A DNA stretch of 64,000 nt from Octopus vulgaris (Eukaryota). The notes below the pieces were generated by a model. The model saw nothing but the letters and a program-made list of their open reading frames with translations, had not been told where the DNA came from and ran no database searches. Below are positions 18,132 through 44,092 of this stretch, piece after piece (positions within the stretch are counted from its first letter, which is position 1; every line of letters starts with the position of its first letter). The translations under genes and the position numbers were made by a program. Location of the stretch: contig OX597816.1 of assembly GCA_951406725.2 (NCBI GenBank), positions 140,182,001 through 140,246,000 on the forward strand, written 5' to 3'.

Positions 18132-20049
18132 TATTTTATGATTGATTTTATAGAAGACACTCTAAATAGGCTAAAAAACTGTGAACAAAAAGTTGTTGTT
18201 ATGTAATCACTTTAACTTGGTTACGTAGTCACTTTTCTAAAGCTACAAACACGGATGTACATATGCGAAAAGACAAAAAAGCGGCTTTTGTCCGTTTGAT
18301 TCATGTCTAGAACTTTCAATAAAAGAACAAAGGAATTTCATGATTTTATAGCTAAAATAAACTCTCACTGAAGTAATAGCTTTATACAGAAATGTCAATC
18401 CTAGAGAAAATAAGTTTAGTGTTATTACATGAAATACCCGTTTCATTAAAAAGAGCTGTGTAGAATAAAAGAGATGTGCTTCTGATTGTTTAAATATGTA
18501 TTTGAAAACTTGATGAGTGCTCTTTCCTGTCTGCCAAATGCTGATATCCTTAACTTTTTCTCTAATACACTACCACTAATTTCAAGTTTTCCTAAATTTT
18601 CCAATTTTTTCTTTTCTTTTCTTTTTTTAGCTTAGAATGACCTCAGACAAAAAAAATTACTAGAAAGCCCCAAAATAACTTTTTGAAATGTAATTTCACA
18701 TTTCTAAGAGAAATTGACATCAGAGTTAGTTTTACGGAAAATTTTGGCACAAGGCCAGCAAATTCGGAAGGAGAGGTTAAGTCGACTAGAGTGCTCAATC
18801 AATATTGATTTTATCGATCCCTTAAGAATGAGAGGCAAAGTTTGCCTCGGTGGAATTTGAACTCAGAGCGTAAGAACGTACGGAATGCCGTTAAGCATTT
18901 TCCGGCGCGGTAACGATTCTGCCAGCTCGTGCCGCCTTAGTTTTACGGACAATACTGATTTTACTGCCAAAGTTGACGGCCAATGGAATTCATGATATTT
19001 ATTGACTTAGTATTTTAGCCTGAAATTAGGAATTGTGTATTTGTTTATTAGTTTTTTGAAGCTGCTTGCTGATTAATTTATTTTGATAATTTCATTTATG
19101 TTTTTACTGATTCTTCTACATTTCCCTCATTATTTATTTTTTATTTTCATTATATTTTTGTTATTATTGTCAAAAAGGCGACAAGCTAGCAGATTATTGG
19201 AACATCAAATAAGGTGCTTAACAGTATTGGTTCTGGGTTTTACCATCTAAGTTCAAATCCCGCCGAAGTCCACTTTGCCTTTCATTCCCTTGGGGTGATG
19301 AAATAGAGTGCCATTCATCTTATTTGATGGGTCCTAGGATTAATCGAATGTAAGAGGTTAATCAAAGGTATTGTTTAACCCCCTACTATCGAAATTTCTG
19401 GCTTTGTGCCTAAATTAGAAACCGAAGGATCGACTGTGTGTTTCATCTTTTCGGGGGTCAATAAAATAAAGTACCAGTCAAATGGAGGCGATATAAACGA
19501 CTGTACACCTCCCCTGAAAACTGATGGCCTTGTATCAAAGTAGAAAGTTAATATTGTAGTTAGCGTATTTAGTATATTTTAGTAAGTATATTTTTGTTCG
19601 GAATTGATACTTGAAGCGTTATTTCTCCGAGACTTGCATTTTTTAACCCTTGATCTACTCTTCGTTTGCCTTTTCAATTTTCTTTCTATATTCCTTTTTA
19701 AATAATCAACAAGGCAAATTTTATCGTGTTATTTTCCTTCCACTGTGAGAGTTCATCCACTAACTATTATTGCGCTTTATTCTTTGTGTTCTAAAACCTA
19801 AAGTGTTTCGCGCATGCAACATTCTATTGCTTTGCTTACATTGGTCTGTGAGAGCTAAATATTTCTCTCTCTCTGATAGTTTCTTTTGTTTTATTTGTAA
19901 TGAATATTTTTTGAAAGTTGTTCTAATCTAGTTTCTTAGATGTTTAATGTTTTTATTGTTTGTCATAAAATTCCTTGTACCCGGGTAACTATTTGAGTTT
20001 AATCGTTGTTATATAAGATTGTTTCCTTAAAAAAGAGAACTCATGTTTC

Positions 20050-21660
20050 TTTTCTGGACCTAATGTCTGTTTAGGTAGAGTTTGGTTCTGATGAGCTAAG
20101 TAGCACAATGTCGTCTACAGATATCAGCCGAACCATGCTACTCACACCTATGGGGACATCATTTACGCAACAGTCGTGCATATCGCTCCAGTGCAAAATT
20201 ATTATGAAAAGAAGAGGTGACAGTACATATCGCTACTGAAGTTCAATATCTACATTGAAAGGTTCCGATTTAACACCATCTGTGCATTCGTACAGAGACT
20301 TCATGGCAACCAGAACTTGCCCATTAATCCAAACCCACTGCAAACTCTATACAGCATGTCCCGCAGCATGAGGTCCTATGCTTTTTCGAGGTCTATAAAA
20401 CAAGCGTGCATCTTTTGTCAATGTTCCTACGACTTCTTGAATACCTCCCACAGAATGAATATCTTGTCGGTTGTGCTGTAGCCAGGATGAAAGCCACACT
20501 GGGGTTCAACAGTCTCCCAAAAACTCTTTTCCAGACACCTATCGCAAACTACCAGGGAAGTTCAACAAGAAGATTCTTCTATAATTAAATCACTCTCTCT
20601 TGTCGTTCTTTTTAAAAATTGGGATTATATACAAGTCATCCAGAGAATACCCTCTCCATTTAAGGCTCTTACATCTGAGGCCCGAACTTCATCCCCTCCA
20701 GTGACCTTGCCACATTTGAGTGCTTTAATCGCTTGTGTTACTTCAGCCTGTGTTAGATTAGTCTTTGCCACTAGGTACACAACATGTCAACACAAGGATT
20801 TTATCGAAACTGGATGTAGGAGATCAGCAAAGTAGTCTCTTTATCTCCCAAGGATGCTCTTATCTATAGAGAGAAGAACCCTAGCTAAGTTCTAAACGGC
20901 AGGTGTAGAAGAGGGCTTGTTACAAAGCTAGAGGATGGCTAGCCAGAATGCTTTATTGGCCAATCTAAAGTTAGAGTCCATCTTAACTCCAAAGCACTCC
21001 CCTGACGTTGTAACTGTCTTTGCAGCAACTTTTCGCGTCTCAATGTAACGCCTGTGCAGAGGAGAAGACTTGTTTCCAAAACAAGCTTTTTTCTCTGCTC
21101 GGGAGGCATTTTTAACTTCCTGCTTAAACTAGAGGATTCTTTTGTCACCTGGCTCCACATCCAGTCACATACGTCCACTGCATTGTACAGCCGAAGAAAA
21201 AATCTACCGAACAAAATAATCTCCCCTACGTTTCGACATCTTCAGTGTGTTCAGGAGGGGCTCTGGATTTGGATGCAATAGCACGCACATATTTGTTTCG
21301 GTTCCTTCATCTGCCAGGACTTCTCACTTTATCCAGTTAGTCGCACAGTTTTGTGAATTCTCCTTGCTGTGAATAGTCAAAGGTTGCAGACAACTAAGTA
21401 GAAATCAGCTGATATCTTCGTCCTTCTCTTTACACAAATGTCCAGCACAGAATCTATCAGTGACCTTTGTCCCAAAGTATCACAGTGCTAGAAGAATGTG
21501 TTCATAATGGAGATCTCGTTCTCAGTAAAGGAATCTAGTAAGTCTTCTTCATTTGTATTAAGTTCAGAGTCACAATCCAATTTCCATTTCCACAATCGCT
21601 TCTTTCCACGACAGTGATAGGTGCCAGCATGTGCATTGAAGTCTCCTTGTCAGGGCAAAT
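20050..21660 (-). mobile_element. Old, degenerate APE-RT LINE (RTE-like)
   Basis: Minus-strand remnants GDFNAH (~21630-21650), EQCGF-like and CFIDLEKA(Y)D (~20375-20410); many stops. Confidence 0.6.
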
Positions 21661-22400
21661 GACTTGGTCTTAACTACATCTAAAGCTACAGTAACCTTGT
21701 TTGGCATGAATTTCGTTACTAACCGCTCCTAATACCGCAGTTGCTGGAAACTCAGTGTGCATCACTCCGAGGACAGCAGAAGGACCTGCACATAACCATC
21801 TGTCATTTTTCCGGCAAGACTTGAGGTTTTGGTCGAAGTTTTCCTCATTAAAGAACCGAAGCATGGCATGTCCACCACATCTTTAAACTTGTTAAGTAAC
21901 TACTTGGCACAGACCAAACGGCTTTCCCTGTTTCAGAAGTGAATTAACCACTCATTTGTACATATGACTCATATAACTTCTCCCCTTGCCCCACAATTCT
22001 GATAGCCCACTCCGATGCCCGAAGCTCTTTGGTGATGGCTTTCATTTATTTCCAGAATCATTAGTAATGTTTTGAACCCGTTAGATGAATTACGATGTTC
22101 CTATGAGAATATCCGAACGTTTAGAATGTTTTTTTCACTTTGATGCAGTATAAAAATTCCAGAGTTTCCAATCCCATCTGAATTTTGAGTACAAAAGAAT
22201 TTGCAACATTTAGAAAGTTGACAATTTCTAAATCGCTGTGTTCCGCGCATATGGCAACAATAACTATTGCATACTTTTTTTTATTTCTTGAGTTAGCATT
22301 TTATCTGCCATGGGGATCGGAAAGATATTAAATACTTTTTATGTGGTTTGAGAAGAGCATTATTCTGATTATCAAATATCCTCAAATACCCTTCGCACTC

Positions 22401-22403
<3 letters not shown>
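21661..22403 (-). mobile_element. Tc1/mariner-superfamily (DD37D/maT-like) transposase fragment
   Basis: RFFNEENFDQ..NDRWLC..P..V..VMHT.FPA..VLG.VS.E resembles the FSDEK..NDRWL..TKFPA.VMV.G.VS segment of DD37D-type transposases. Confidence 0.6.
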
Positions 22404-22476
<73 letters not shown>

Positions 22477-22634
22477 TGTGTGTGTATATGTTTGTGTTTG
22501 CTTGTATATGTATATATTGACAGATGGATGAATCGATCGAGCGATCAACCGATCAGTCGAGCGATGTATGTGTGTGAAAGTTTGTGCGTTCTTGTGTATG
22601 TGTGTGTATGTGTGTGTGTATGTATCTATGTATG

Positions 22635-22668
<34 letters not shown>

Positions 22669-22692
22669 TGTATGCACGCACATTGATATGTA

Positions 22693-22750
<58 letters not shown>

Positions 22751-23280
22751 TGTGTGTATATGTGTAATACATGTATTATTACTAGGTTAAGAAGTACACA
22801 CACGGTCACATATGCACACAAACATAAACACACACTCAAGCTCACGTACAAACATATGTGATTAGTATGTATTTAGCAGCTAGATTGTACTGAGTACCTT
22901 CAAATGACACTCCTCTTCTCTTAAAAGAAAATAAAGGATACATTGACCAATGTAACCCTAATATATGCAAAAAGACCGCCTCGCTATGGCTAGACACCTT
23001 TCATCGCAGGTATACACTATCTGGGGGTTGTAAAACAAAAACCTGTCCAACATGTTGCAACAGATATTACAATGCATTTCCTGAGTTAAACTGAGAGTTC
23101 CGGAATCGGTAGTATTGTAAAATTACAGCACGTGTTATATCGAGTGATGCCAACTATTGTAGAAATGAAATTTAAAAAACTGCAGTCAAACAAAGACGTA
23201 AAATGTGAATTGTAGGATGGGCAATGTGTGTGGGAGAGAAGAAATCATATGTAATTAGGAAGACACCTTTAATGTGCTAC

Positions 23281-23431
23281 GATTGGTATTGTATGAGCTA
23301 AATTTGACTTACAGTATACGCCCCACCTATCATTTCAAAATTTTTCTATATATATATATACTTCAGCCAAGAGAATTACATACGACTTTGACCAAGCCAA
23401 ATCTTCTGGAAGTATACAGAAACAAGCTAAG
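23281..23431 (+). promoter_or_regulatory. Putative promoter and non-coding first exon of tyrosinase copy 1
   Basis: Reverse CCAAT (gattgg, 23281), GC/CACCC-like gccccacc (~23320), TATA tract (23347-23360), then a perfect donor aag|gtaagt at 23431/23432. The ATG exon begins with an acceptor only 2 nt before the ATG, implying an upstream exon. Confidence 0.45.
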
Positions 23432-24408
23432 GTAAGTGTCTTCCTGTATTATGACATTTCGGTACAGCACTAATACTGAAGATCTGATTTATCAACTGTT
23501 TCCCAGTCTCATGTAAAAGACAGAACTTTTGCGACGTTTGCAATGACACTAAATGACTTGATTAGAGAGTTTACACTAAATTCCTCCATTTTTTTCTTTG
23601 GTTATCTTTACTCTAGGATCGATTAAATTGACACCTCTAATATTCTGCGATCGATTCAAACTTTGAAACCAATGCTCTTTATTCTTCTGAAGAGCGCTAG
23701 CTTAGAAAATAGAGTCAGAGAAATTACCTAATTCTCAAGAGCGAATTCAAAAATCGTAAATCGCACCGCAGCAGAGAAAACCTAAGAAAACCTGCTTAAT
23801 AACTTTGGAACATTGTTGTAAAGGTATTACATTTTGATAATGCCTATACTGCCAATAAATGCATGAAAGTTATACGATTGTATCTCCTTTCTCCCGCACT
23901 GAAAGTCTCCAGAAAAATTCAAATAAGCTTGACAAGCAAAAATATAATAGTCATACTGAATCACCGTTGAAGTCTGACAGTACGACTGAAAAGCATTTCT
24001 TCATAATTAATGTCTAAGCAGAATATTTTGAAACAATGTTTACAAGGTTAGCCCAATCTTTCACTAGGTAGAATACATATATACGCTATTTTCCCCATAG
24101 ATATATGAAATGTAAATACATAACATAAACATACGTCTCCTGAAAAGCTGTGTTATATTCGTGTCGCTGAATATAAGGTGAAATATTTATGATTAAACTT
24201 AGTCATAAGCTTGAGGACATGAAAAGCATGTATGGAAGAACAATTTTTTTTATTCTTAAATTTTTTTTTTATTTGTTCCTACATTTGAATTCTTTCGTTG
24301 TGTTTATGTGGCAACTATCAAATTGATTTGGCCTGAAAAGTAAATAAATTAATGAGTAAATGCATATTTGCAATATATAAAGTAAACTATACAGAGGTGT
24401 GTGTGTGT

Positions 24409-24491
<83 letters not shown>
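24409..24491. repeat. (GATA)n microsatellite
   Basis: Direct tract; also in copy 2 at ~57734-57817. Confidence 0.95.
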
Positions 24492-24492
<1 letters not shown>

Positions 24493-25255
24493 TTTTTCTC
24501 AAAATAACCACCAAAATTGCCAATACATTTCTGTTTCCTTGCCACAGAATAAAAAATGGACTTTTCGAAGAAATCTCAACCACATTTGCTGAAGAATTGC
24601 TCTACTAATTGCTTAAGCTCATTTTGATTTTTAAGAATATGTCCTTATAAATATTTCTTAAGATAGAAAAATATACTAAATTCGCTCAGAGTGAAATAAG
24701 GGCTCTAGGATAGATTTCAGAACGTAGCGAAACGAAGAAGCTTAAGTTGTTGAAAAACTGACAGCAGTAGTGTGTATTTTCTTGAAGATGCGAGAATAGA
24801 ATGTTATTTTCCTTCCTGATACTGCCTACCATTTGACTTTATAATCTGATAGATTTGTTAGCAAAATCCCATAAGATTAGGCCAAGGTGCTCTCCAAAAT
24901 AAAACTCAGAAAATTCTATTGATCTTTAGTGAATGGTTATATTATTGATCTTCATTGATGGCTTTTGTTCGCTAGATGATATCTTAGTTTCTGAGAAGCA
25001 AAAGTAGACTGGTGCTTTGTCATGTATTTTACCTTTTACTTGTTTCAGTCATTAGACTTCGGTCATGCTGGGAGGTTTTTTGAAGAAGTTTTTGGCTGAA
25101 TAAATTGACCCCAGTACTTAATAATATTTTCTTTTTTTGCTAAGCCTGGTGCTTATTCTACCGGCCTAGTTTGCTGAACCGCTAAGCTACGAGGATGTAA
25201 ATACAGCAACACCGATTGCCAGTGGTGGTACGGGACAAACACAGACACAAAGACA

Positions 25256-25309
<54 letters not shown>

Positions 25310-25331
25310 CATATATTCATACATATATACA

Positions 25332-25417
<86 letters not shown>

Positions 25418-25423
25418 ACATAC

Positions 25424-25683
25424 ATATAGTGTACATTTAAACACATAAGGAATCCACTCGTGGAATTCAACACGCTAGAAAGAACACCTAGGTTCTATAA
25501 CCACAAAAATTAGGTATAAAATTCGACAGGAACGAAATGAAACTTGATGGTAAGATGTTTTTATTTTTCATTTCGTTCCTGTCGAATCTTATCCCTAATT
25601 TTGTGGTTATAGAACCTATGTGTTCTTTCTAGCGTGTTGAATTCCACGAGTGGATTCCTTATGTGTTTAAACGAACACTATAT
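25424..25683. mobile_element. Foldback MITE / long hairpin (~118-bp arms, ~23-bp spacer)
   Basis: 25424-25542 is the near-perfect reverse complement of 25566-25683; TA-rich flanks. Confidence 0.8.
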
Positions 25684-26021
25684 ATTATGACTAATTCATG
25701 GTCTTTTGGGACTAAATTTTTACACGTTAGGCCACTGGAAGTGAAAATTTTAATTAATTTTCCATTTCCCTTTGATATGTTTAAGTATATATATATATAT
25801 ATATATATACATGACGGGCTTCTTCCGGGTTCCGTCTACCAAATCGTTTTACAAGGCTTTGGTCAGACACTTGGCAAGGTGCCATGCAATGGGGCTGAAC
25901 CTGGAACAATGTGGTTCGGAAGCAAGTGTCTTCTACTATAACCTCGGGACGATCAAAGCCTTGTAAGAGGATTTGGTTGACGGAAACTGAAAGAAGCCTG
26001 CCGTATATATATATATGTATA

Positions 26022-26080
<59 letters not shown>

Positions 26081-26355
26081 ATGCCTGTAAGTATGTGTGT
26101 GTGAGTGTGTGTGTTTTTGTGTGTCTTTGTCCTCCACCACCGCTTGACAGCCGGCGTTGGTGTGTTTACGTCCCCGTAACCTAGCGGTTCGGCAGAAAAT
26201 CTTTGGTGCCAGGTTAAAAAGTAAGTAGTGGGGTCGATGTCGATTCATTCGACTAAAACTCTTCAAGGCGGTGCCCAGTACGGCAGTAGTCTAATGGTTG
26301 AAACAATTAAAAGATAAAAGTTAAAGATGAAAAATACATACATACATACATACAT

Positions 26356-26760
26356 AGGCGCAGGAGTGGCTGTGTGGTAAGTAGCTTGCTAACTAACCAC
26401 ATGGTTCCGGGTTCAGTTCCACTGCGTGGCATCTTGGGCAAGTGTCTTCTGCTATAGCCCCGGGCCGACCAATGCCTTGTGAGTGGATTTGGTAGACGGA
26501 AACTGAAAGAAGCCTGTCGTATATATGTATATATATATATATGTGTGTGTGTGTGTTTGTGTGTCTGTGTCTGTCCCCCTAGCATTGCTTGACAACCGAT
26601 GCTGGTGTGTTTACGTCCCCGTCACTTAGCGGTTCGGCAAAAAGAGACCGATAGAATAAGTACTGGGCTTACAAAGAATAAGTCCCGGGGTCGATTTGCT
26701 CAACTAAAGGCGGTGCTCCAGCATGGCCGCAGTCAAATGACTGAAACAAGTAAAAGAAAA
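26356..26760 (+). mobile_element. Intact tRNA-derived SINE with LINE-like 3' tail
   Basis: Head aggcgcaggagtggctgtgtggtaag (A-box-like) and gggttcagttcc (B-box-like); internal TA/TG tract; tail ggcggtgctccagcatggccgcagtcaaatgactgaaac followed by A-rich repeats. Confidence 0.8.
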
Positions 26761-27120
26761 AGAAAGAAAAGAAAAGAAAGAAAAATACATACATACATAC
26801 ATACATACATACATACATACATACATACAACATACATACATGTCTATGACACTGAAGCCTATTATAAAGTTCATTTATTCCATATTTTATACTGATTCAA
26901 TTTATTATATTCAAGGTTACTCTTTATTATTTATCAAGAAGATAGTTTTGTTTCAAAATATCGCAGTTTTGATGTCTAACTCTCTTTTCGCTTATTAATT
27001 TAATTTTAAATTTAAAAATGAAAAAATTTTTAAATGAGGGTGAGAAATTAGATATTAATTTAATTAACATCGATTTCACACCAGTGGTCTAGCATAAAAA
27101 AATTGAAGGTTCAGTAAAAT

Positions 27121-27164
<44 letters not shown>

Positions 27165-28380
27165 TAGTGGTTTCCCTCTAATATATATATATAATACAAT
27201 TTTACTGAACCTTCTCTTTTCGCTTATATACATGTTTATGTATGTGATTTATGTGAAAAGACATAAATATTCGTCCATCGATAAATCTTCTATCATACTA
27301 GATGAACGTAAAACTGCACTTTTGCAAAATTCGTATCATTTAAAATAAAATGCTATTTAGATACTAAGTAACGAGGATGGTAATGTAATATACTTTATAC
27401 TTTGAAAGATTACATTCTACATTGAAACTGCCTTTCTTCAAATTCACTTACGAGGCACATGTATTCAGTCCCATCATACAAGGTGCAAATTTTTACGTGC
27501 CTTAAACTGAGTACACGTGTGTTACCTATATTTCGGAATGTGTGATTGTGAACATTTTTTTTTATATACATATAAACATTTTGATGCTCGACATTTCATT
27601 TCTTCTTTACAATTCTTTTACTCGGCAGTGCAAAAAAAAAAAATCAACACACCGCAAAAAAAACAAAAACTCAAAATTTCCCAGTTCGCATCATCGAGCG
27701 AAATCACATTCACAAACCAGTCCTCACAAACCAATCCTCATAATGAAACAAAAATACTCACAATGAAAAGATCCCCTTTCCCCCACCTTACAAGTTAGAA
27801 ATATATACTGCTGCTCATAAGACCTCCATAAAACGTATGAAGTATAATTTTCAGCTGAGTGGAATCACGATATATCTGGAAAAACTCTCCAATAGTATCA
27901 CTGACTATTCATGTGTCATAGGTTTCATCTATCTTCCACATAACTATTGCAGCTATTTTAATAGCGAATCCTTGTCTACAAAGTTCTGTTATCTATTCTT
28001 TTCTCCATAATTGTGAGAATTGTAAAGCTAATATTTAACATTTCACTTGTAATTTTCTTATTTTCATTGTCTTTGGTGCATGTCATTGAAACGATTGAGA
28101 AAAAAGATTGTCGAAAATCGATAGTTATTATCACCGACAGTATTGTGTGTCTGTGACCCAACCATTGTAATTACATCAACCCCGTACACCTTGACATAAT
28201 CAGGTAGAGTGAGTATATAATTCACAATGCATTGATGTCGTTAATGATTGTTCGGTTGCGTGTGCCAAATCTACCATAGCATAACTGATCTTGTTTTATC
28301 ATTTCTTTTATCCTGATGTATTTTTTTTTAAATTGTCAACACATGATGTTTTCCATTTTTTTTTTTTTCATTTTCCAGAA

Positions 28381-28704
28381 ATGAATCGTCTCTACTTTGC
28401 TTTCGTCATATTGCTGAGTTTTGTTTATGTGAGTTCATATATTCAAGAAGACATTGAGCAATGCTATCGTCAACTGGGCTCTACTACAAGCGATGCTGAC
28501 ACCCAGTTGCAGTTCTGTATAGAGCAGGTACAAATGAACTGCTCTTCCTTTAAGTGGAGCCCAATGAATGTTGTTTATGAATCACCGAAACAATCAGGAG
28601 CAAATAATTTGATTATACCTCGAACGAGGAAGGAATATAGATTGCTTAGTAACCAAGAAAGATACGATTTCCTTCGTAGCTTATATCTTTTAAAGCAAGA
28701 TACG
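28381..28704 (+). CDS. Tyrosinase-like gene copy 1, coding exon 1 (signal peptide and N-terminal region, 108 aa)
   Basis: Acceptor ttttccag|aaATG; hydrophobic signal MNRLYFAFVILLSFVYVSS; RTRKEYRLLS..ER..F..L..LK motif typical of tyrosinase domain starts; donor acg|gtaaga, phase 0. Confidence 0.88.
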
Positions 28705-28740
28705 GTAAGAATGATTTATTATTTCTATATAAACATATAC

Positions 28741-28945
28741 GGAGAGCTGGCAGAATCGTTAGCACGCCTGGCAAAATGCTTAGCGGCATTTCGTCCGCCA
28801 TTACGTTCTGTGTTCAAATTCCACCGTGGTCGACTTTACCTTTCATCCTTTCGGAGTCGATGAAATAAGTACCAGTTACGAACTGGGGTCGATGTAATCG
28901 ACTAGCTTCCTCCCCCAATATTTCAAGCCTTATGTCTATAGGAGA
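28741..28945 (+). mobile_element. tRNA-derived SINE in tyrosinase intron
   Basis: gagctggcagaatcgttagc..gttcaaattcc..ggtcgacttt.cctttcatcctttcgg.gtcgat..aagtaccag; same family as 3867 and 33063. Confidence 0.75.
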
Positions 28946-29495
28946 ATGAATTATTTCTATACAAACAACTATCAAGGAGACACTTGTTAATATTATTTCA
29001 GATAAACTTATATACTTACACAATACTATTGGTTACAGTGTTTACAACAAGGGTCATGAAATTCTTTTTATGATAGCCCACTTTTAAGTTTTCTCCACAT
29101 TTTCACATGGCACCACATATGTATATGTCATACATACATAAAAATATGCTCATGAGTTCCCAACCATATCCATTGCTAGTAATGTTTAAATAAGCAAAAG
29201 TTAAAGTAATCGGCAGGCAAAAAGATATCAACCAACTGTTCAATGGTCCACAGAGAACATGCCAGGAAACACCTGTGTGTGTGTATACGAGTCTGTGTGT
29301 GTGTGTGTGTGCGTGTTGTGTATGTGTTTGAGTGTGTGTGTGTGTGTGCGTGTGTGTGTGTGAGTGTGTGTGCGCGCTATGCATATATACATACATTCAT
29401 TCATACATACATACATACATACATACATACATACATACATGCCTACATGCATACATACATACATACATACATACATACATACATACATACATACA

Positions 29496-29526
<31 letters not shown>

Positions 29527-32500
29527 GTCAGGTCACTTATGAGGCTCTCATAAGTGCTACTGGTAACATGGAATCCAGTACAACCTATTGCATGCAACTA
29601 AACTGGCACCTCCACCAGGCTATCCTTGTGAGTGGGGTTGCTAGAAATCCAGCAGGATTAAAAACAAGACCTCTTGAAAGGTCGGATGAACCTAGTGCAG
29701 GCTCAACGGCTATCTAACAATAGCACGGGTACGCAGAAATTCCGGGATGGTGGCCGGCGTGCTGAAAGACCACTGGGAGTGAGGCACCCCTCAGATTTTG
29801 TTAAAGCATGTCTCTCGGAGAAGGTCACTCTAATATAAAACCAGATATGCAAGGGATGACATTGAACATTTTGGGGATCTTTGGTTTGTGCTAGAGATCA
29901 TGGCGCTCCCACATCCCTGAGCCTGCAACTCATATTGGCACCAGGCATCTTGTTCCGGCTTGTCTCTGGAGAATGTCAATAAATTTGAGAGGGTATGTGA
30001 GGTGACGTGCAAGCCTTATTGCTCAATATGTGTCTTTCCCCCACCCTCTATATATTTATTTATGTGGCGATGGGAAGGTGGTGAAGCATGCAGACCTGAC
30101 GGGCTGGAAGCATGTAGTCAACGACCTGCACGTAGGCGGCCCATGCTAGATATAAAGTCGTCTCCTTGTAGCCCAAGACAGCGGTAGGATTCGGTTGCTG
30201 CATGGGTGTCTGAGCAGCTCCATTTGGAGAGGACACTGCTCACTCGAAGACCGGGGAGTTTCTTGAAAAGGTGAACCAAAAAATTGTCTGTCTTTCTATA
30301 TCTGGTCAGTTTAGCACAAATGATGGATGTCCACCCTGCGCTTGAGAAACAAAGAGACTTTTATTTACAAAATCTGGATGGAACTTGAACATTTCATGTT
30401 AGAATGTGCGCACTCTGTTGGATAACAAAAGTGATTGTAGGCATGAAAGACGCACTACACTTGCTTCTCGCGAGTTGAACTGTTATAACATTGATATAGC
30501 TGCACCTTCAGAGACTCGTATAGAATGTGATTGTCAGATTGAGGAAGTAGGAAGTGGATACACTTTTTTTTGAAGGGGAGGCAGAAGAGGGAGCAGAGAG
30601 AGGTTGGTGTTGGCTTTGCAGTTCGATCTGATACCCTTAAGAAGTTGGAGGAGCTTCCTGTTCCTATAAACGAACGTCTAATGACTCTAAGATTGCACCT
30701 GAAAGGTGAGCGGTTTCCTACTCTAATAAGTGCCTATGCACCCATTCTGACTAGCTGTGGTGAAGATAAAACTATATTTTATACCCAGCTGAGAGCCATA
30801 CTTAGGAAAATCCCAAATTCTGATAAAGTCATTCTAGTGGGGGATATCAATGCCAGGGTTAGAACAGACTGGCAAACATGGAACTCTCTAAGACGTTTTG
30901 GAGTAGGGAAAATGAATAGCAATGGTCTAATGCTGCTGGAGCTTTGCGATGAACATGGACTTTACATCGCAAGCACTCATTTTATGCACAAAGGTGACCA
31001 CACAACAACGTGGATGCATCCAAGGTCTAAAGTTTGGCACTTGCTGGATTATGTCATCATCTGCAAGCGTGACATCTATGACATTTGTAATGTCAAGTCC
31101 TTTCATGGATCAGAATGCTGGACAGATCACAGTCTGGTGCGAGCAAAGTTCCGGATGATGATTAAAGTGAAAGAGAGAAGATAGCCAGTCAGCACTCCTC
31201 GGTGTCTGAATATCTACAAGGTATATGAGGAAAGAGCTTCAGACTCGCTTGTCCAGCATTGAAAATACTGCAGCATGGGAAGATTTTTCGAGATCAGGTT
31301 CTTCAATGTGCTGCTGAAACACTGGCAAATGCTACTGCCAGACACAGAGACTGTTTTGAGGAAAATGATGCTGAAGTTCAGCGACTATTAGCTGTAAAGC
31401 GCCATGCCCATAATGTATTGCTACACAGAGGACTTTTTGCTGTGCAGCGAAATCTAGCACTTGCCCACTATAGCAGTGTAAAATCACTACCGCAGCGATC
31501 TCTCAGGAAGATGCAGAACACCTGATGGGAGGATCTTGCTCGTGATGTTCAGGCTGCTGCTGATGAAAATGACAGCAAGAAGCTTTACTATCTTATGAAG
31601 TAAGTTTATGGGCCTAAGAGCTCCACATCAGTTCCTTTGCTTTCCAAAGAGTCTTCCACTCTATTTACTAAATCAACAGAAATCACAGGTCGCTGGATAG
31701 AATTACTTCTTTGAAATCCCAAACCCCGAGCCAGTTGTGGATGAAACAGTGATTGATACTATGCAACAAAGACCTATCATTGGCTCCTTAAATTCGACGC
31801 CTTCAATAGATGAAGTAATGACATCAATAAGTAAATTGAATCTTGGTAGGGTTACCTGAAAGGATGGAATTTGTGCTGAGGTCTTACGATTTGGTGGTGA
31901 TTATAACATACAGTCCCTTCATGAACTTATTAGTGCAGTCTGGAGGGATGGTGCAATGCTTAAGGACTGGAAGGATGCAATTATTCTTCCTCTCTATAAA
32001 GGAAAAGGAGCCAGAACAATGTGTGGTAACTACAGAGGTATTGCTCTACTATCAGCTGCTGGCAAGGCTCGGGCAAATATTCTTCTTACCCGCCTAAATG
32101 GGTGTCTCGTAAATAACGTCCTATCTGAATCTCAATGTGGCTTCCGATCTGGCAGAGGGACAATGGATATGATTTTCACAGCAAGGCCGATGCAGGAGAA
32201 GTGCTATGAGCAGAATATGGATCTTGTGCAGGTATTCATTGATTTAATGAAGGCCTTTGATACTGTGAATAGGGCCTTGCTATGGAAAACACTTGGCAAA
32301 CTTAGATGTCCGGATCACTTTGTATCTATAATTAAATCATTTCATGATGTGATGGAGGCTTGGGTCAATGTTGGTGGTGGCATGGCGGGATCCATTCCTG
32401 TAGAGAATGGTATCAAGTAGAATGCCCCAACACTCTTTTCTTTGTACTTTTGCTGCTGCTTTTACTCATGCCTTTTCTAAGGTTAGCGCTCTGGGAACAT

Positions 32501-32628
32501 ATGTCAAATATCAACTTCTGGCCGCCTCTTTAATCTGCGCCGATTTGCTGCCAATTCAAAAGTTTTCCAGTCTCTTATTCGTGACGCCCTTTATGCAGAT
32601 GACTGTGACTTAGTCACTCATACAGGAA
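29527..32628 (+). mobile_element. Degenerate RTE-clade LINE (5' UTR + APE + RT, 3'-truncated) in tyrosinase intron
   Basis: SETR, GVGFAV, GDINARV, TWMHP, LDY, WTDH; NYRGIALLS, ESQCGFR, FIDLMKAFD, YADD (~32592). Stops and frameshifts; 5' boundary approximate. Confidence 0.88.
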
Positions 32629-33062
32629 AACACAGCTGTTGCAATAATAACACTGTACTTCCATGGGCCCACAGCTATGACATCAATATCAACATTAGCT
32701 TGTTAAAGGTCATCTATATTACGACATCTAATGATATTTAGTGCTAATCTCTGATTATTTTGTCGATATAATTTATCATCTCAAGTTAGAATATACAGAC
32801 ACTGCTCCTCAGACAGTTGTACTCTTTTAATTCTTTTTGAAGAGCATCTCTTCACCCTGAAGAAGGAGGCTTGATTTTTCCAGTGTTTGTTTTCTTCCAT
32901 TACTGGTTGCAGATGTTTGAGAAACTACATCTGCCAACATTATCAAGGAACTCCGAGCACCCAGAAACAGATGTTGGACTTGTAACATCATGCCTCCTCC
33001 CCTCAAATTCTCTGAGTCTATACTATCTAAATACGTTTGCTCTATTAGTATATAAATATATG

Positions 33063-33262
33063 AAGGCGGTGAGATGGCAGAACTGTTAGGACGCCGAGCA
33101 AAATGTATAGCATCATTTCGTCTGTCTATATGTTCTGAGTTCAAATTCCACTGAGGTCGACTTTGCCTTTCATCCTTTCGGGATCGATAAAATAAATACC
33201 AGCTGATGTAATCGACTATACCCCTCCGCCGAAATTGCTGGCTTTGTGCCAAAATTTGAAAC
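33063..33262 (+). mobile_element. tRNA-derived SINE
   Basis: aaggcggtgagatggcagaa..gagttcaaattcc..gaggtcgactttgcctttcatcc..tgtgccaaaatttgaa. Confidence 0.75.
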
Positions 33263-33502
33263 CCTTTCATAAATATACATATATTTATATTTGAATGTTA
33301 ATCATCTGAAAATTTTAATTCTTTGCCTTTTATTTATTTACATGTGTATATATTCAGTATATCAAACTCAAGGAGTTTTATGTGTTTGCATCATTGTCTA
33401 CATACACAGATATATCCATTCCTCCATCCATCCATCCATCCATCCATACATACATACATACATACATACATACATACATACATACATACATACATACATA
33501 CA

Positions 33503-33534
<32 letters not shown>

Positions 33535-33801
33535 CGCATGCATAAATACATATATACTAAGAAGGAGAGTAAAAATGTAAGACTGACATATAAAATGGAA
33601 ATTAATATTTTAAAAGACAACTTTCACAGAAGAAGGAAAAAAATATATTTGATATGAAAACAAATCTCCTGTTCTTTCCAGAATAATAGAAATCTTTCAT
33701 CGAAAACAGAAATCAAAATTAAAAGGCATAACTTCAGATAAAACTTATAAACGTTTGCTGTGTCCTAATCATTATGATTTTTAAAATTATTTCTTTTACA
33801 G

Positions 33802-33914
33802 AGACTCTCACCAAATGTATTCGATTCTATCGCCTTCCTGCACACTGGTGATACTGCAAGAAACGCCCATGCTGGTCCTACATTTCTTCTCTGGCACAGA
33901 ATCTATTTGAGAAT
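33802..33914 (+). CDS. Tyrosinase-like gene copy 1, coding exon 2 (CuA site); absent from the ORF track
   Basis: ttcttttacag|AGA..AGA AT|gtaagt encodes RLSPNVFDSIAFLHTGDTARNAHAGPTFLLWHRIYLR with three CuA His. Spliced to the next exon it completes H-x4-F-L-x-W-H-R-x2-L-x3-E. Confidence 0.93.
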
Positions 33915-34134
33915 GTAAGTCATGCAATCAAGTATTATTCTTCCAGGTTCCTTCTGCTCTTTTCCTGTTTCTTTATCTCTTTCTTTATTGATTTTTTTAA
34001 CTTTTGCCTCTTTCCCTTCCCATATTTCCGTTATCTTTTTGTGTTCTTATGTTCCTCCTCCCCTCTCCTCCTCCTCCTCCTCATCATCATCATCATATTA
34101 TTATTATTATTATTATGATTATTATTATTATTAT

Positions 34135-35065
34135 CTTTCGATTCTATTTACATTTCTTGCCGAGTGTCTTTCTGACATCTAGGGCAGGGAAACGTACTGT
34201 ATACATTGGTAGGCCATTAAAACAAACACATCAGACTGTTCATTTACAGAATCATGTGTTAGAGGAAAAGGAAAAAATAAAAAATAGAAAAGTAAACAAA
34301 TAAAATAAAGGTGTGGTGGGGGAGAAAATTCAAGCGACAATGCTCTTCTCAATACGTGTGACGTACCGGTTAAGACAATCTTTTGCACTTCCTGCATGTA
34401 TGGTAAGCCAGGGATCGTTCTTTAAAAAATTTCAGTTTCGTTTTTTTTATCATTTCAGGATGGTGCTTGTACCATTTGTCAGCAGTTTTGATTTTATAAT
34501 GCCCACACATTATCCATTGTAGATATTGGCCAACTCTGTCATGTCTTGATTTGTACTCTACAGGTGCTAAAACCTTACACCCAGAGATTAGATGGTCAAC
34601 TGTTTCTATCCCATCGTTGCAGTATCGGCACTTTGGGTCTACACCATTTTTCATCACATTGGCTTGATAGTACCAGGTCAATAAGCTCTGATCTTGGGCA
34701 ACCAAAATAAATCCTGTACTCTCTGACTTTAGCCCTGAGCTCCGTAGCCACTAAATGGGTATGCTTCTGATCTACATCAGCTTGTTTGCTACGGGCCATA
34801 TATTTGCCATGCTGAGGTTTTTGTTCCCACCTATCAGCCAATTGTTCAAGCGCAATTTGCTTTGCTATTGAGTTCAACTTCTTTGCAACTACAGCTGCTA
34901 CACTTTCCTCATGCTGTTCAACCTGGATATTATGTATAAACTCACTTGAAAATTTTTTGCTCTCCTTCATAACAGACTGAATCTTCTTACGTCTTTCATG
35001 GTTTTTAATTAGCTTTAGCATCCAGTTGTTAGATGTTTCAAGATATTTTTCCAGTTCAGTTGTGG
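34135..35065 (-). mobile_element. R4/Dong-like retrotransposon 3' fragment in tyrosinase intron
   Basis: AQDQSL, CRYC..ETVDHLISGC, RHD, VQKIVLTGTSHVLRRALS. The 3' UTR matches 41050-41115; flanked by TTA/TCA tracts. Confidence 0.85.
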
Positions 35066-35070
35066 TGGTT

Positions 35071-35141
<71 letters not shown>

Positions 35142-35713
35142 TATCGTCGTCGTCGTTATTATTATTATTATTATTATTATTATCAACTATGATATTGAAT
35201 AAACACCTATGCTTTAAATATATTAGTATATATAATATGAAGTAAACTACAAGATATTTATAAATTTCCATTTCAGATGCAATTTTTTACATTAATGAAT
35301 AGCGTGAAACCCATTTAGACTTCTTAATTTGTTAACATAAATCGAACGCAATAATAGACACCCCATATATCTCATTATTTATAGGAACTGTGAGTCATGT
35401 TGCTCCATCAATTTGTTTTTCAAAGTAAATGATATCTACAGTCGCTGTGCACACACATATTCTGCGATCACTGGGGCGTACACTCCCATCCGATCTTAAA
35501 AGTCTAAGATAAGTTTATAAATATACACTAACCTTTGCTGGCGAATTCTTGAGATATGCCAGTATACAAAAGATTAAAGCGTCTCTTGTACTAGAACAAT
35601 TTGTGCATAATATAATTTTCCCTTGATAAATGAAATTAGTTAATCGATAAAAAATATGTAAATATGTTTTCTACGTATTAAATAGGGTTTACATTTTTTT
35701 TTTTTCATTTTAG

Positions 35714-37317
35714 CTTGGAAGATGCTCTTCGTGAAAAAGTACCTGGTGTAACAATTCCATTTTGGGATCCAACTCTTGACAGTCATCTTCCTAATCCTCG
35801 AGATTCCATTATGTGGTCAGATGAGTTAATGGGAACTATCAATGGTTTCGTCACTAAAGGGCCGTTTGCTAACTGGAAAACACCAATTGGTTATCTAGTA
35901 AGGAACGGGGGTTTCAGTACAAGGTTACCGACAAGTAGTAACATCGAAGATGTTCTCACTCGAACGAAACTCGAAGAGATCTCTGAACCAAATGCAGAAG
36001 ATCGATATAACCTTGAATCCATGCATAATTCTATGCATGTTGCTATTGGAGGTCACATGGCTCGGGTACCATCATCGCCCATGGACCCAGTTTTCTGGCT
36101 ACTCCACAGTTACGTAGAACTTGTCCACACGCGTTTCACTGAAAACCAAAGGCGACACAACGTTAATCCCGCAACAGATTATCCTTCGAATTATGGTTTA
36201 AATGTTTACGCTCCCAATCAAAGTATTGGTCTTATGAATTTAACCGTTGCAGAAGCATTAAAAAATACTAGTTCTTACACTCATTTCTACAAATATGACT
36301 ATAGTTACTTGAAAAACTGTACTCTCGATCCAAAGGTATGTAATTCTCCATACCTAACCTGCAATAATGGTAGATGCGAGTCGAAATCTAGAAACTCAAC
36401 TCGTTGCAGTACTTTAATTCCCTATCAGAATATGTTTTGTATCAACCGTAGATGCGATGTAGATGAATGGGCATTTATTCCGGTTGAAGTTATTTACGAA
36501 CGACCTTTCGACACGATGAAATTTGGAAATTTTCCTATCAAAAACGGCGTGCCGAATTTGCTGAATGATCTGTATGATGATAATCGACTTCAAAATTCCT
36601 CCGGTAATTCTAACAGAAATAATTGTCAAATAAACAAGTGTTGTGGTCCTGCAGGAAGACTCAATGTTCGAGCTATTGGTTTAAATTATTTTGGAACCTA
36701 TGAAGAGATGGCGGTGATAGATCGCAGATTAGCTGTATCATCGGATATATCTTACTTGGGAATCAGAGACCCGCAGAAAAATAACAGTGTAGTATTTTTG
36801 TCAGCGTCAGAACAATGTGGAAGAATATGTCGTCCTTCTTGTTTAGTGCCGGGTTCAAATCCGCCGAGATACATACAATGTATAGGATTGTTGAACATAA
36901 CACGTTACAACGCTACTTTGTACGGTAAAACACTCGCAGACGCTTACATGAACGTGTGGGATTATGGAAACCAGATACGACCGAAACTGAGACATGAAAA
37001 TATTCCAATAGTGTTCCATTGTGATGACAGCCAGTGGCCATTTAACAACAACAATACATCTACAACAACGACGACGACGACGACAACAACAACAACCACC
37101 ACAACACTGCCGACAACAACAACACCACTACCAACAACAACTACAACATCAACGACGACAACAACAACACCAACTCCAACGACGACAACAACAACACCAA
37201 TTCCAACGACGACAACCACAACACCACTACCAACAACAACAACCACAACACCAACTCCAACGACGACAACAACAACACCAACTCCAACGACTACAACAGC
37301 GACAACTACATATCGAA
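35714..37317 (+). CDS. Tyrosinase-like gene copy 1, coding exon 3 (CuB site, Cys-rich domain, Thr/Pro stalk)
   Basis: Acceptor ttttcattttag|c (phase 2); LEDALR..IPFWDPTLD, GPFANW, LESMHNSMHVAIGGHM..SPMDPVFWLLH (CuB); donor cgaa|gtaagt at 37317/37318 (phase 1). Confidence 0.93.
37043..37310 (+). repeat. Coding Thr/Pro-rich (mucin-like) repeat
   Basis: ACA/ACG runs with recurring ccaactccaacgacgac / ccactaccaacaac units giving TTTTTPTP / TTTTPLP. Confidence 0.85.
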
Positions 37318-37433
37318 GTAAGTGGCCTTTTTTTATCATATCATATGTTCATATTACATCGTGTTTGTGTAAGAGAAGGCCTAGTAGTCTGGTGATCGTA
37401 GTAGTTTAATGTAGGTGGTGGTAGTCCCAGCTG

Positions 37434-37815
37434 GTGGAGGCGCAATGGCCCAGTGGTTAGGGCAGCGGACTCGCGGTCATAGGATCGCGGTTTCGATTCC
37501 CAGACCGGGCGTTGTGAGTGTTTATTGAGCGAAAACACCTAAAAGCTCCACGAGGCTCCGGCAGGGGATGGTGGTGATCCCTGTACTCTTTCACTATAAC
37601 TTTCTCTCACTCTTACTTCCTGTTTCTGTTGTACCTGTATTTCAAGGGGCCGGCCTTGTCACTCTCTGTGTCACGCTGAATATCCCCGAGAACTACGTTA
37701 TGGGTGCACGTGTCTGTGGAGTGCTCAGCCACTTACACGTTAATTTCACGAGCAGGCTGTTACGTTGATTCGGATCAACCGGAACCCTCATCGTCGTAAC
37801 CGACGGAGTGCTTCC
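37434..37815 (+). mobile_element. Young tRNA-derived SINE with 11-bp TSD in the last tyrosinase intron
   Basis: Head ggaggcgcaatggcccagtggttagggcagcggactcgcgg..ggtttcgattccc (A and B boxes); TSD agtcccagctg at 37423-37433 and 37816-37826. Confidence 0.88.
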
Positions 37816-38303
37816 AGTCCCAGCTGATTTAACTAACTGGAGTGAGGATGGGGATAGCTTTATTAGGATTAAAGTAATCAAAATGTGAGACAGTGCAGGG
37901 CAACGTAATCTAGGGTAGTAAAGAGTTTTACTGCAGGTAATGTTGAATCTTCTATGCAATGGATTGTCTAAATGGATAGACTTTGATTGTATGGATTCTG
38001 ACTTCATGTTTCGTCACGATTTGCAATACGTCCTTATACGAGGCAAAAAACAATTATATCCATCATAGTTACATAGGAACCAAATGTTATTGTTCAGTAC
38101 TAATTTCTAAGTTTTGTTGTGTTAAGCTGATTAAAATATATCAATAAAGGTATTTTTTAATTAACGGTGATTTGAATTCAGTTAGGCATGTCATTAACAT
38201 ATCGGACAATTCTACATTGCCGCCGCGTAGCAATAGGTTAACTTTATTATATGCACTACCTACTCATCTATATATATATGGTGTGTGTGTGTGTGTGTGC
38301 ATG

Positions 38304-38367
<64 letters not shown>

Positions 38368-38910
38368 TATGTGTGTGTGTGTGTATAGATGAAGTGTCTT
38401 GTCTACATATTAATTATTGAGAGTGACAATGGACACAAAGCCTCCCTTAATATTATTCAAACTGAAAGCGGCGAGCAAGCAGAACCGTTACCGCGCCGGG
38501 CGAAAGGTTTAGTGGCATTTCGTCTGTCTTTACGTTTTGAGGTTGTCTTTATCTTTCATCGATAAAATAAGTACCAGAAATAAGTACCAGAAATTTCTGA
38601 CTTTGTGCCAAAATGTGAAACCGGTATTACTCAAACTGCCAAATTCCATACTGGTTTTCTGGCATATACATTTATCAAAAAGAGAAAAATGCTAAGAGAC
38701 AATCAGAACCTTTTAAATTACTTGGTGAACCTGACAACCAATGCAAGTGCCATTTCTTTGTTGTTACATATTAAGGGTAAGCTCAGCCACATCAAGCTTG
38801 CAACTCTCAACTTTACAAACGCCAGGACAATTAGTCTGTAAAGAATTGCAAATACTAGGCATATTACTGAAATTGTATTCTTTCTAATGTTTCTCGTTTC
38901 TCTTTTGCAG

Positions 38911-39098
38911 ACTGCTACAATCCCAGGAGCTGTACCTCTAAGAAACGATGTCGATGTAAAGATGGAGATAAACAATCTTGCCGAAAAAGTTGTTCCCATT
39001 ATGCTATTTGTTACTTTGGTCGTTACTATAAGAGGTCTTGTGGCTACGGTCGAAGGTTTGAAAAGTCCATTGGAAAGTGTGTTTATGGATACTGCTAA
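38911..39098 (+). CDS. Tyrosinase-like gene copy 1, last coding exon (basic Cys-rich, CBM14/chitin-binding-like); absent from the ORF track in this frame
   Basis: Acceptor tctcttttgcag|ac, phase 1 matching the upstream donor. Encodes NCYNPRSCTSKKRCRCKDGDKQSCRKSCSHYAICYFGRYYKRSCGYGRRFEKSIGKCVYGYC*. Total CDS is 2229 nt (743 codons). Confidence 0.82.
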
Positions 39099-39237
39099 TA
39101 CTAAGCAATATTCCCATTGATGTTACAATTGAAATGTTTCTCAACTACAGACCTTTGCATAGTAATTTGAAGAGGACATAACCATCTAACACCCACCGCT
39201 GGATTGATTGACTGATGAATGGATGGATGATGAGTAG

Positions 39238-39243
39238 AATAAA
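39238..39243 (+). terminator. Candidate polyadenylation signal AATAAA
   Basis: First AATAAA about 140 nt after the stop; alternatives at ~39253 and ~39430. Confidence 0.35.
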
Positions 39244-40044
39244 TGAATGAATGAATAAATGAATGAATGAAGGAAGGAATGTATGAAATGAGAAAATGAA
39301 TTGTGATATGAAAATCTATATAGAATCCGGTACTAACTTTCAACCAAAAGGTGGATATTTGATTTGGTTAATATTTTTCAGTTAATTATTTATTCGTCGA
39401 AATTCTTATCTAATCTTACTATAAAGCTCAATAAATATATAATTAATTTAGATGTTCTGATGGTTTTTATTTTTTTACTCGGAAGTCCCTTGCGAAAATG
39501 GTAAACTATTTGGAATTAAATGAAGGGAGGAATGATTTTACCGAATTTGACGTCTAATTTCCTTATAGTGCACACCACTCGTTTCGGAAATGATGGAAAC
39601 AAGTTGATCAGAATCAAAGAGACAACATATTTACTTGTTATAAACATTTGATCGACGTATTGGGTTCTTTCCATCTCGTTCATACAGATCAATATTTGTA
39701 TGGTATGATGGCGATGACCTAAGAAAATTGCATAACATCGCATTTAATGCATTGAAGTATTTACTTATGTCCCTCAATTATCAAAGTCCCAAACCTGCCA
39801 AAATCGATTTTTTTTGTCTTCTTTCCTATTTTTGTTTTTAATAAAATATGAATCAATATTATTTGAGGATCGACAATATAACCTGCCTTATGCATAGCGA
39901 GAACGTTTCGACATCGTAAAGCAGTACCAATAAGAAGAGGAGGAGTGGAATGGAGGAAGATGAAGGAAAGGAAGGGAAGGAGGAAGTGGTGGAGGAAAAG
40001 AAAAACGGAGGAGGAGGAGATGCTCAAGAGGAGGAAGAGGAAGA

Positions 40045-40175
40045 GAAGAAGAAGAAGAAGAAGAAGAAGAAGAAGAAGAAGAAGAAGAAGAAGAAGAAGA
40101 AGAAGAAGAAGAAGAAGAAGAAGAAGAAGAAGAAGAAGAAGACAGATAGACAGATAGACAGACAGACAGACAGAC
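40045..40175. repeat. (GAA)n followed by (GACA)n
   Basis: Direct tracts. Confidence 0.95.
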
Positions 40176-40493
40176 ACGAATGTAGAGGGAAATTTTTTGT
40201 TTCATTGGGAAAAGGCCACAAATTTTGGAGAAAGTCTATTAAGCCACCGCCAACTTTCCACAGGTACAGTCTATCTGACTCGATCCAGTCAAGATTTGAA
40301 CTTAAGGCACAAAAGACCATAATTTATGATAAAAGACAATTTACTGCAGTTTTCTGCCATTCTTTTTCTTTCAGGCCTGAGCTTAAATTCGCCCAAGCCA
40401 GTATAGAAGGTACTTGCGCTAGACTATGCCCCTTTAAAACACTGTATATCAATGTTGACGATTTCAACATCTAGGACTACAGCTCGGTCAAAT

Positions 40494-41145
<652 letters not shown>

Positions 41146-41149
41146 AAAA

Positions 41150-41210
<61 letters not shown>

Positions 41211-41223
41211 TATTAATAATAAC

Positions 41224-41304
<81 letters not shown>

Positions 41305-41305
<1 letters not shown>

Positions 41306-41701
41306 TCAGAGATCATGAAGAAAAAAAATGCTTTCTAATTGATGTATCAATACCGGCTGATGACAACGTGTCTCTAAAAGAAATGGAGAAACTCTCAAAA
41401 TACAAAGACCTGGAAATAGAGGTAACTAGAATGTGGAATCTGAAAACAGAAACAATTCCTATCATAGTAGGTGCATTAGGCATGATAAAAAAATATTCAG
41501 ACAAATACATAACAAAAACACCAGGACTTACAAACACATATAACATACAGAAAATTGCACTACTAGGTACTGCACACATCCTACGCAGAACACTTTCCAT
41601 ACAATAACCATCAGAGCATCACAACAAATCACAGCACATACCCAAGGCACACAGAGCTGTGCTCGGTAGTGAAGTGAAAGCAAGCTATAAAAATAAAACT
41701 A

Positions 41702-41704
<3 letters not shown>
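41305..41704 (+). mobile_element. R4/Dong-like 3' fragment, near-identical to the 3' end of 5225-7938
   Basis: ORF 41368-41607 has the same translation as 5322-5561; ends aaaactactg then (AAT)n. Confidence 0.9.
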
Positions 41705-41764
<60 letters not shown>

Positions 41765-41768
41765 TGTA

Positions 41769-42895
<1,127 letters not shown>

Positions 42896-42896
42896 G

Positions 42897-43009
<113 letters not shown>

Positions 43010-43013
43010 AATG

Positions 43014-43099
<86 letters not shown>

Positions 43100-43103
43100 A
43101 ATG

Positions 43104-43195
<92 letters not shown>

Positions 43196-43229
43196 AAGAA
43201 GAAGAAGAAGAAGAAGAAGAAGAAGAAGA

Positions 43230-44050: not shown

Positions 44051-44088
<38 letters not shown>

Positions 44089-44092
44089 TAAT

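Follow-up and report, generated by a model that had tools for sequence, protein, structure and literature searches.

A 64,000-nucleotide stretch of the Octopus vulgaris genome (the window; G000:C3:140182001-140246000) carries two near-identical tyrosinase copies, A1 and A2, whose first coding exons differ in a short patch close to the N terminus, raising the question of what has made this patch change. The 464 kb around the window, free of N, hold eight tyrosinase genes, all on one strand and falling into four types (A1, A2, B1, B2, D and C1-C3), an octopod tandem tyrosinase cluster with homogenised 3′ exons. A1 lies in a tandem unit of 32.8 kb (19521..52282, plus strand). A2 lies in a second plus-strand unit, which begins at 52283, fills the remainder of the window (to 64000) and extends past it to about G000:C3:140271800. 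The two units are a head-to-tail duplication: the junction at 52282/52283 is sharp, with no N and no homology, and both units end in matching sequence, as expected of a true tandem duplication. Divergence between the units climbs distally within 44521-52282, from 0.3% to 1.6-3.2%; the distal part of unit 2 has insertions and lacks a counterpart of 46561-50011. Open frames resembling LINE-type reverse transcriptase/endonuclease were recognised by eye at 5883-7715, 13359-14225 and 50906-51727 (minus strand) and at 30543-32417 and 46739-49492 (plus strand).

A1 comprises 742 codons in four coding exons, all on the plus strand. Exon 1 (28381..28704; 108 codons; acceptor AG at 28377-28378, donor GT at 28705) encodes a likely signal peptide (28381..28437), read by inspection from hydrophobic codons 1-19 and the same in all six versions of the exon described below, followed by a head domain and the start of the catalytic domain. 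Exon 2 (33802..33914) holds the CuA site with three His, exon 3 (35714..37317) the CuB site, a Cys-rich beta-sandwich region and a Thr-rich stalk, and exon 4 (38911..39098) a CBM14-like chitin-binding domain and the stop codon. In the product, the hydrophobic leader and the 60-residue head precede a six-His tyrosinase core, which is followed by the beta-sandwich, the Thr-rich stalk and the CBM14-like end. It matches PF00264 above the cut-off, its predicted structure has the type-3 copper fold (Z 27-29, rmsd 2.6-3.0 against bacterial tyrosinases), all six copper-binding His of type-3 copper proteins in the alpha subclass are present, and by inspection the C terminus is Cys-rich and soluble. Exon 4 scored under the cut-off against PF01607 (E 0.0013; 19.3 bits, cut-off 22.1), and its predicted fold resembles those of Der p 23, Avr4 and Blo t 12 (Z 5-6). 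A1 is likely to be a secreted tyrosinase, predicted to bind chitin. Secreted type-3 copper proteins of the alpha subclass (PF00264), as described in the available part of PMC3658974, have CuA and CuB with six His and the bacterial tyrosinase fold in common with A1, and the hydrophobic leader and missing membrane anchor that characterise them are also suggested for A1 by inspection of its sequence; A1 goes beyond them in having a head, a beta-sandwich, a Thr-rich stalk and a CBM14-like domain in addition, and its head is without the furin-like motif that is common among its relatives. In the tail of A2 exon 3 (G000:C3, about 140252600) the Thr-rich repeat lacks 1 nt, which shifts the frame and, if real and not a consensus error, would remove the chitin-binding domain.

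A sequence-only reading of the window had reported 10 substitutions and a 3-nt in-frame indel between the two copies, with two more changes a little downstream. Alignment of 19521-30688 with 52283-64000 bore this out, placing the ten substitutions within 34 bp (28456-28489; at 28456, 28459, 28468, 28469, 28477, 28478, 28484, 28486, 28487 and 28489), the gap at 28480-28482 and the downstream changes at 28566 (M62I; the codon starts at 28564) and 28579 (E67K). Patch 1 covers codons 26-37 (28456..28491, plus strand) and patch 2 codons 60-67 (28558..28581, plus strand); the A2 version of patch 1 (61847..61879, plus strand), unique in the assembly, lies in a first coding exon of 107 codons (61772..62092, plus strand), with exons 2-4 of A2 outside the window. 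All ten substitutions of patch 1 fall at codon positions 1 or 2 and, as had been stated, all 12 change an amino acid in the nucleotide alignment. That the exon lacks any synonymous difference holds in this alignment, but a protein-based alignment shifts the gap by one codon and yields one apparent synonymous step. A1 and A2 indeed agree in the signal peptide, the Cys codons and the AG/GT dinucleotides at the splice sites; the poly-T tract preceding the acceptor has a 3-nt insertion in A2.

Non-coding divergence between the copies is low, as first noted, although the count for 19521-22400 had to be corrected from about 16 changes to 18 substitutions and one indel. After repeat masking, the divergence was 48/14,776 sites (0.32%) over 19521-40467 and 89/6,569 (1.35%) beyond 40467. 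At this divergence, the probability of finding at least 10 changes in a 34-bp stretch anywhere, corrected for scanning, lies between 2e-13 and 1e-7; non-coding 36-bp windows reach 6 changes at most. With none of 12 substitutions synonymous, the A1/A2 pair alone gives P 0.02-0.06. In this pair, the density of changes is the strong part of the evidence and the absence of synonymous change the weak one. The following 480 codons carry one synonymous and one non-synonymous difference between A1 and A2. At 33807, the site of a synonymous change, A2 bears the B-type codon; around exon 2 (32521-34520) the divergence is locally raised to 0.8%, and intron 1 contains a high-copy SINE-like element (28740-28930 and 62128-62317).

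Public sequencing runs hold further versions of exon 1. Four of the 20 runs holding the exon were taken, from four studies under three organism labels; each (X1, X10, X12 and X13) gave one contig across exon 1, and each contig was different. With A1 and A2 these make six versions, in which the three labels are mixed. X1 has A1's patch 1 together with S60N, P61K, M62N and E67K; its piece of a 1,962-nt contig (depth 3.19) spans exactly 28377-28704, and the contig is likely spliced, judged from the piece ends alone, since none of the runs with the exon is recorded as RNA. X10 has Q27E and S34Y, and X12 has Q27E, T35G, S37N, M62K, E67K and probably L98H, which was read from depth sums and may stem from a paralog. 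X13 has Q27K, a 6-nt deletion, S37N, E48G, M62K, E67K and Q106K. The O. sinensis protein P0003 shows a third patch, two residues shorter, and equals X13 except at residue 106; it possibly has the same source as X13 and was therefore counted once. Among further exon 1 proteins, neither of two candidates of short length qualified, P0001 and P0003 were the only ones of long length, and no A-type head was found from O. bimaculoides.

Two different in-frame deletions occur among the six versions, and codon 62 takes four states (M, I, K and N). At codons 27 (Q/E) and 67 (E/K) all four combinations were found, indicating recombination of the patches or repeated mutation in them. A2 stands furthest apart, differing from every other version at 9-11 residues. 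Its E27 and K67 also occur in other runs; its own patch appeared in 0/4 runs, each represented by one contig, and since contigs drop alternative alleles such data speak to presence only. Six differences in the X10, X12 and X13 contigs (two each) are missing from the listed set and probably sit in the poly-T tract or the SINE, where other contigs pile up. RNA editing as a source of the variants was rejected, because three of the four runs are genome-sized and the changes are not A-to-G.

The six versions carry 24 distinct listed substitutions at 22 sites, none of them synonymous, distributed 11/12/1 over the three codon positions. The probability of 24 non-synonymous against 0 synonymous changes is 6e-4 (kappa 2.8) to 3e-3 (kappa 1); it is 0.01 with A2 left out (15 against 0) and about 0.0015 with X1, error-prone at its low depth, left out (21/21 non-synonymous). 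A codon model placed omega at its upper bound of 50 (2dL 15.3 against omega 1, P 9e-5; P 0.003-0.01 without A2). On the listed differences, dN/dS appears to exceed 1 at recurrent sites, a result that might be weaker once the six unlisted differences are counted: were all of them exonic and synonymous, no excess would remain (P 0.2-0.5), and with two such differences P becomes 0.02-0.06. Variable sites make up 19/324 exon 1 bases versus 4/641 clean flanking bases (P 1e-6). Exon 1 differs by 1.9-2.2% in three of the four runs, X10 by itself being unremarkable (2 changes, P 0.26); in exon 3 the same runs share 0.88-0.98 of 31-mers, which corresponds to a difference of at most 0.07-0.4%. The excess over the flanks and the near-constant exon 3 indicate that the head changes faster than neutral DNA, and therefore that relaxed constraint alone is insufficient. 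Five of the 10 codons changed in A2 (27, 34, 35, 37 and 62) take a third state in other runs (P 0.0016, computed within the head). This count replaces an earlier overlap statistic (6/10 codons, P 4e-5), which was dropped as inflated by shared ancestral states. Five adjacent double changes among the exon 1 substitutions fit multi-nucleotide mutation, which inflates selection tests of this kind. Diversifying selection, the first of two readings originally offered for the patch, thus gained support from four further versions of the exon and from the codon model, and we consider it probable that selection acts on the head.

In the predicted structure of P0003 (mean pLDDT 85) the head blocks scored 58-81, and a head-only model scored 57; both models show helix, loop, helix and then coil. 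Mapping on a predicted structure, proposed as a check in the sequence-only reading, puts patch 1 at the end of helix 1 and in the loop between the head Cys C28 and C46, and patch 2 in the linker preceding the catalytic domain, which is modelled with low confidence. Across 115 aligned homologs, the head positions that are invariant here form the family core: I25 (0.98), C28 (78/86), Y29 (0.99), L32, the second Cys (86/91) and a Trp (58/74). The variable codons are polar throughout the family (hydrophobic share 0.08-0.34) and lie about 140 degrees from the invariant positions on the helix, i.e. on its opposite face. The changes are predicted to sit at surface positions, sparing the Cys pair and the hydrophobic core. 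Six of the substitutions introduce a Lys and would thereby affect charge or trypsin-type sites. A Pfam search of the head found no domain, the best score in an ESM Atlas search with the head (0.78) was at chance level, and a head-to-body complex prediction, run without an alignment, scored 0.00.

A head is present in 95 of 165 proteins compared, with the Cys pair in 82/95. It ends in R-x-K/R-R, presumably a furin site, in 59/83 non-octopod proteins, and this motif precedes the catalytic domain in 0/12 octopod rows. The pattern suggests that the head is a pro-domain cleaved in relatives and kept, or processed outside the cell, in octopods. The variable patch had been assigned to the mature N terminus; it is N-terminal, but the motif survey and the homolog alignment point to a pro-domain-like head and not to a plain mature N terminus. 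The head domain is common to lophotrochozoan secreted tyrosinases and has been overlooked so far.

We favour, with modest confidence, diversifying selection on predicted surface residues of the type A head; the most likely partner is an inhibitor or protease of microbes or parasites, encountered in secretions of the skin or arms. The enzyme would be secreted and anchored to chitin, carrying an exposed head derived from the ancestral pro-domain, with two helices tied by a disulfide and then a flexible linker. Loss of the furin-like cut site in octopods would have left the head on the secreted enzyme, or to be cut extracellularly, and in either case exposed; a fast-changing external protein would then chase the outer face of the head and the activation linker. 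Recombination or short conversion between alleles would reshuffle the two patches, and the tandem duplication would have set two head versions side by side. The protein-changing head differences between copies and animals likely reflect an arms race with an outside partner; that a pathogen is the cause of the selection is a tentative proposal, to which we give somewhat less than an even chance. Our guess at the order of causes is a pathogen inhibitor or protease first, a reproductive or matrix partner second, and a hotspot with relaxed constraint third. A more speculative version, which we regard as doubtful, makes the enzyme a polymorphic sensor: the retained pro-domain, with patchwork alleles like those of MHC, would serve as a variable module for recognition or as bait, linking contact with a microbial or parasite protein to local melanisation where surfaces bear chitin; the duplication would fix two alleles on a single chromosome.

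The same selection on the head could be exerted by a partner of the animal's own or its mate's, in the tanning of egg coats, cement or spermatophores or in the matching of a matrix substrate. All of the selection evidence applies equally to such a partner, the predicted chitin-binding domain and the Thr-rich stalk suit matrix cross-linking, and reproductive proteins often evolve by selection of this kind. We nevertheless think it unlikely, since the orthologous Argonauta cluster is described as highly expressed in arms and mantle in the available part of PMC9635652. Arm-specific tyrosinase expression is also reported in the accessible part of 10.1101/2021.07.10.451900. Expression or proteome data for the type A gene in O. 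vulgaris skin or glands were not found in the supplements of PMC10138644 (partial file), PMC7693380 and PMC12961712; the first 'tyrosinase' match in the PMC10138644 supplement was a hemocyanin.

More doubtful still is an origin without positive selection, in which a relaxed, disposable pro-peptide coincides with a local mutation hotspot through multi-nucleotide mutation or template switching at a hairpin. The head does resemble a cleaved pro-domain, adjacent changes occur not only as the five doubles in exon 1 but also as 6 pairs among the non-coding changes, and the six unlisted differences would suit a hotspot as well. A1 also has a perfect 8-bp inverted repeat (28471-28478 with 28502-28509, spanning 28471..28509), which two of A2's changes cut to 6 bp; however, chance would be expected to produce an 8-mer match, and the repeat accounts for just 2/10 changes. 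A hotspot should, moreover, strike third positions, where only 1/24 changes falls, and that one is non-synonymous. Core residues within the patch are spared, both deletions are in frame, and 1/22 sites starts a CpG.

Gene conversion, the other reading originally offered, does act in the cluster, on the catalytic exons between paralogs, but was not shown to be the source of the patch. The proportion of synonymous differences (pS) between A1 and B1 is 0.65 in the head versus 0.11 in the catalytic part, and between C1 and D 0.64 versus 0.11. In a tree of the catalytic part the sequences cluster by genus; B heads from Octopus and Argonauta, by contrast, fall together (94/93). From these comparisons, the heads appear to stay distinct between paralogs and the catalytic exons to be homogenised by conversion. 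In the orthologous tandem cluster of Argonauta the 3′ part is homogenised too, which the available part of PMC9635652 ascribes to gene conversion. How common conversion is, here and in that report, would suit the copying of A2's patch from an older paralog or pseudogene, as would A2's position as the outlier and the K26, E27, an Ile and G37 that it shares with the Argonauta A-like head; the A2 patch may be an old lineage. Such copying is nonetheless improbable. A donor search of the assembly (3 mismatches over 39 nt; protein search) returned only the patch itself, and no 12-mer of it occurs elsewhere in the 464 kb. A2's patch has the same third positions as A1; between paralog heads, 0.64-0.65 of synonymous sites differ. 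Since the assembly yielded no donor and the tract shows no synonymous divergence of the normal kind, the proposed import from a third paralog is not supported; the other four versions of exon 1 would in any case be left unexplained.

Nor is the cluster the array of variable heads that had been envisaged: the variation is at the level of alleles and in type A alone. Heads of duplicates are identical (B1/B2; C1/C2/C3), and between O. vulgaris and O. sinensis B differs at 2/67 head and 1/507 body residues, one of the differences being at the site aligned with A codon 62. The identical B and C heads and the low divergence of B between species indicate that the extreme variability is specific to type A. 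The B (two copies, G000:C3:140320437-140356669) and C (three copies, 140416006-140459193) repeats have 0 and 1 coding differences, and by their near-identity are taken to be either very recent or collapsed-haplotype artefacts.

Least probable of all is a mere matter of assembly, in which alleles were joined in tandem or A2's patch is a consensus error: this would fit the patch's absence from the four runs (whose contigs lose alternative alleles), an A1/A2 divergence (0.3-1.4%) that by our reckoning falls inside the heterozygosity of 1.22% given in the available part of 10.1101/2023.05.16.540928, a 1-nt frameshift in the A2 repeat that resembles long-read error, and the adjoining near-identical B and C repeats, but the 464 kb are without N, the junction is sharp and without homology, and A2's changes are in frame, on codons that vary in other animals, with E27 and K67 common to other runs. 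Judged from the contig sequence, A1 and A2 are quite probably a real tandem duplication. Mis-joined alleles, on their own, are rather unlikely and would leave the selection result standing; only an error would remove part of it. Whether paralogs or alleles, A1 and A2 represent the same hypervariable exon in two versions.

The cluster of Argonauta argo (Aargo001559-62) is like that of Octopus in its tandem secreted tyrosinases, there in two pairs, and its homogenised 3′ part, and two members in the tree of that paper are labelled XP_029634080, which is P0014 of the Octopus cluster; Octopus differs in having eight copies and four head types, and the available part of the paper (PMC9635652) describes homogenisation, not allele-level hypervariation or a head dN/dS above 1. 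Selection on this head, or its cleavage as a pro-domain, was not found in the literature searched, which included the accessible parts of PMC4052311, PMC9839350 and PMC10142993 and excluded subscription papers. The cluster and its conversion are already known; the allele-level hypervariation of the head appears to be new. MHC, snail FREPs and conotoxins combine a non-synonymous excess at exposed sites, recurrent change and reshuffled patches with a conserved scaffold, and the type A head appears to share these features of patchwork polymorphism. Unlike in those systems, the variable part is a pro-domain-like head of an enzyme, of unrelated sequence and known here from sequence alone, and hypervariability is seen in only one of the four head types.

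Hardly any cephalopod genes are known to take part in molecular arms races, and the usual view of tyrosinases is of conserved pigment or matrix enzymes. Six samplings gave six versions of the 324-bp exon, which would allow balancing selection to be tested inexpensively by amplicon sequencing in a species that is both fished and farmed. The head also points to a control point for activation or inhibition in lophotrochozoan secreted tyrosinases. Were relaxed constraint and a hotspot the true cause, the exon would be a mere curiosity.

Public gene models P0001, P0003, P0015 and P0018 fuse adjacent copies or put an A head on a B body, and one O. vulgaris protein model merges A1 and A2; these fused and chimeric models hide the type A gene in databases. 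At G000:C3:140373824-140374012 a B-type exon 4 stands alone, with no exons 1-3 in its neighbourhood; it bears a small deletion and corresponds to the alternative C-terminus found in O. sinensis P0011. Elsewhere in the assembly, hemocyanin-like multi-unit genes, three in tandem and two inverted, lie at G000:C5:96.83-96.92 Mb and C27:16.19-16.25 Mb.
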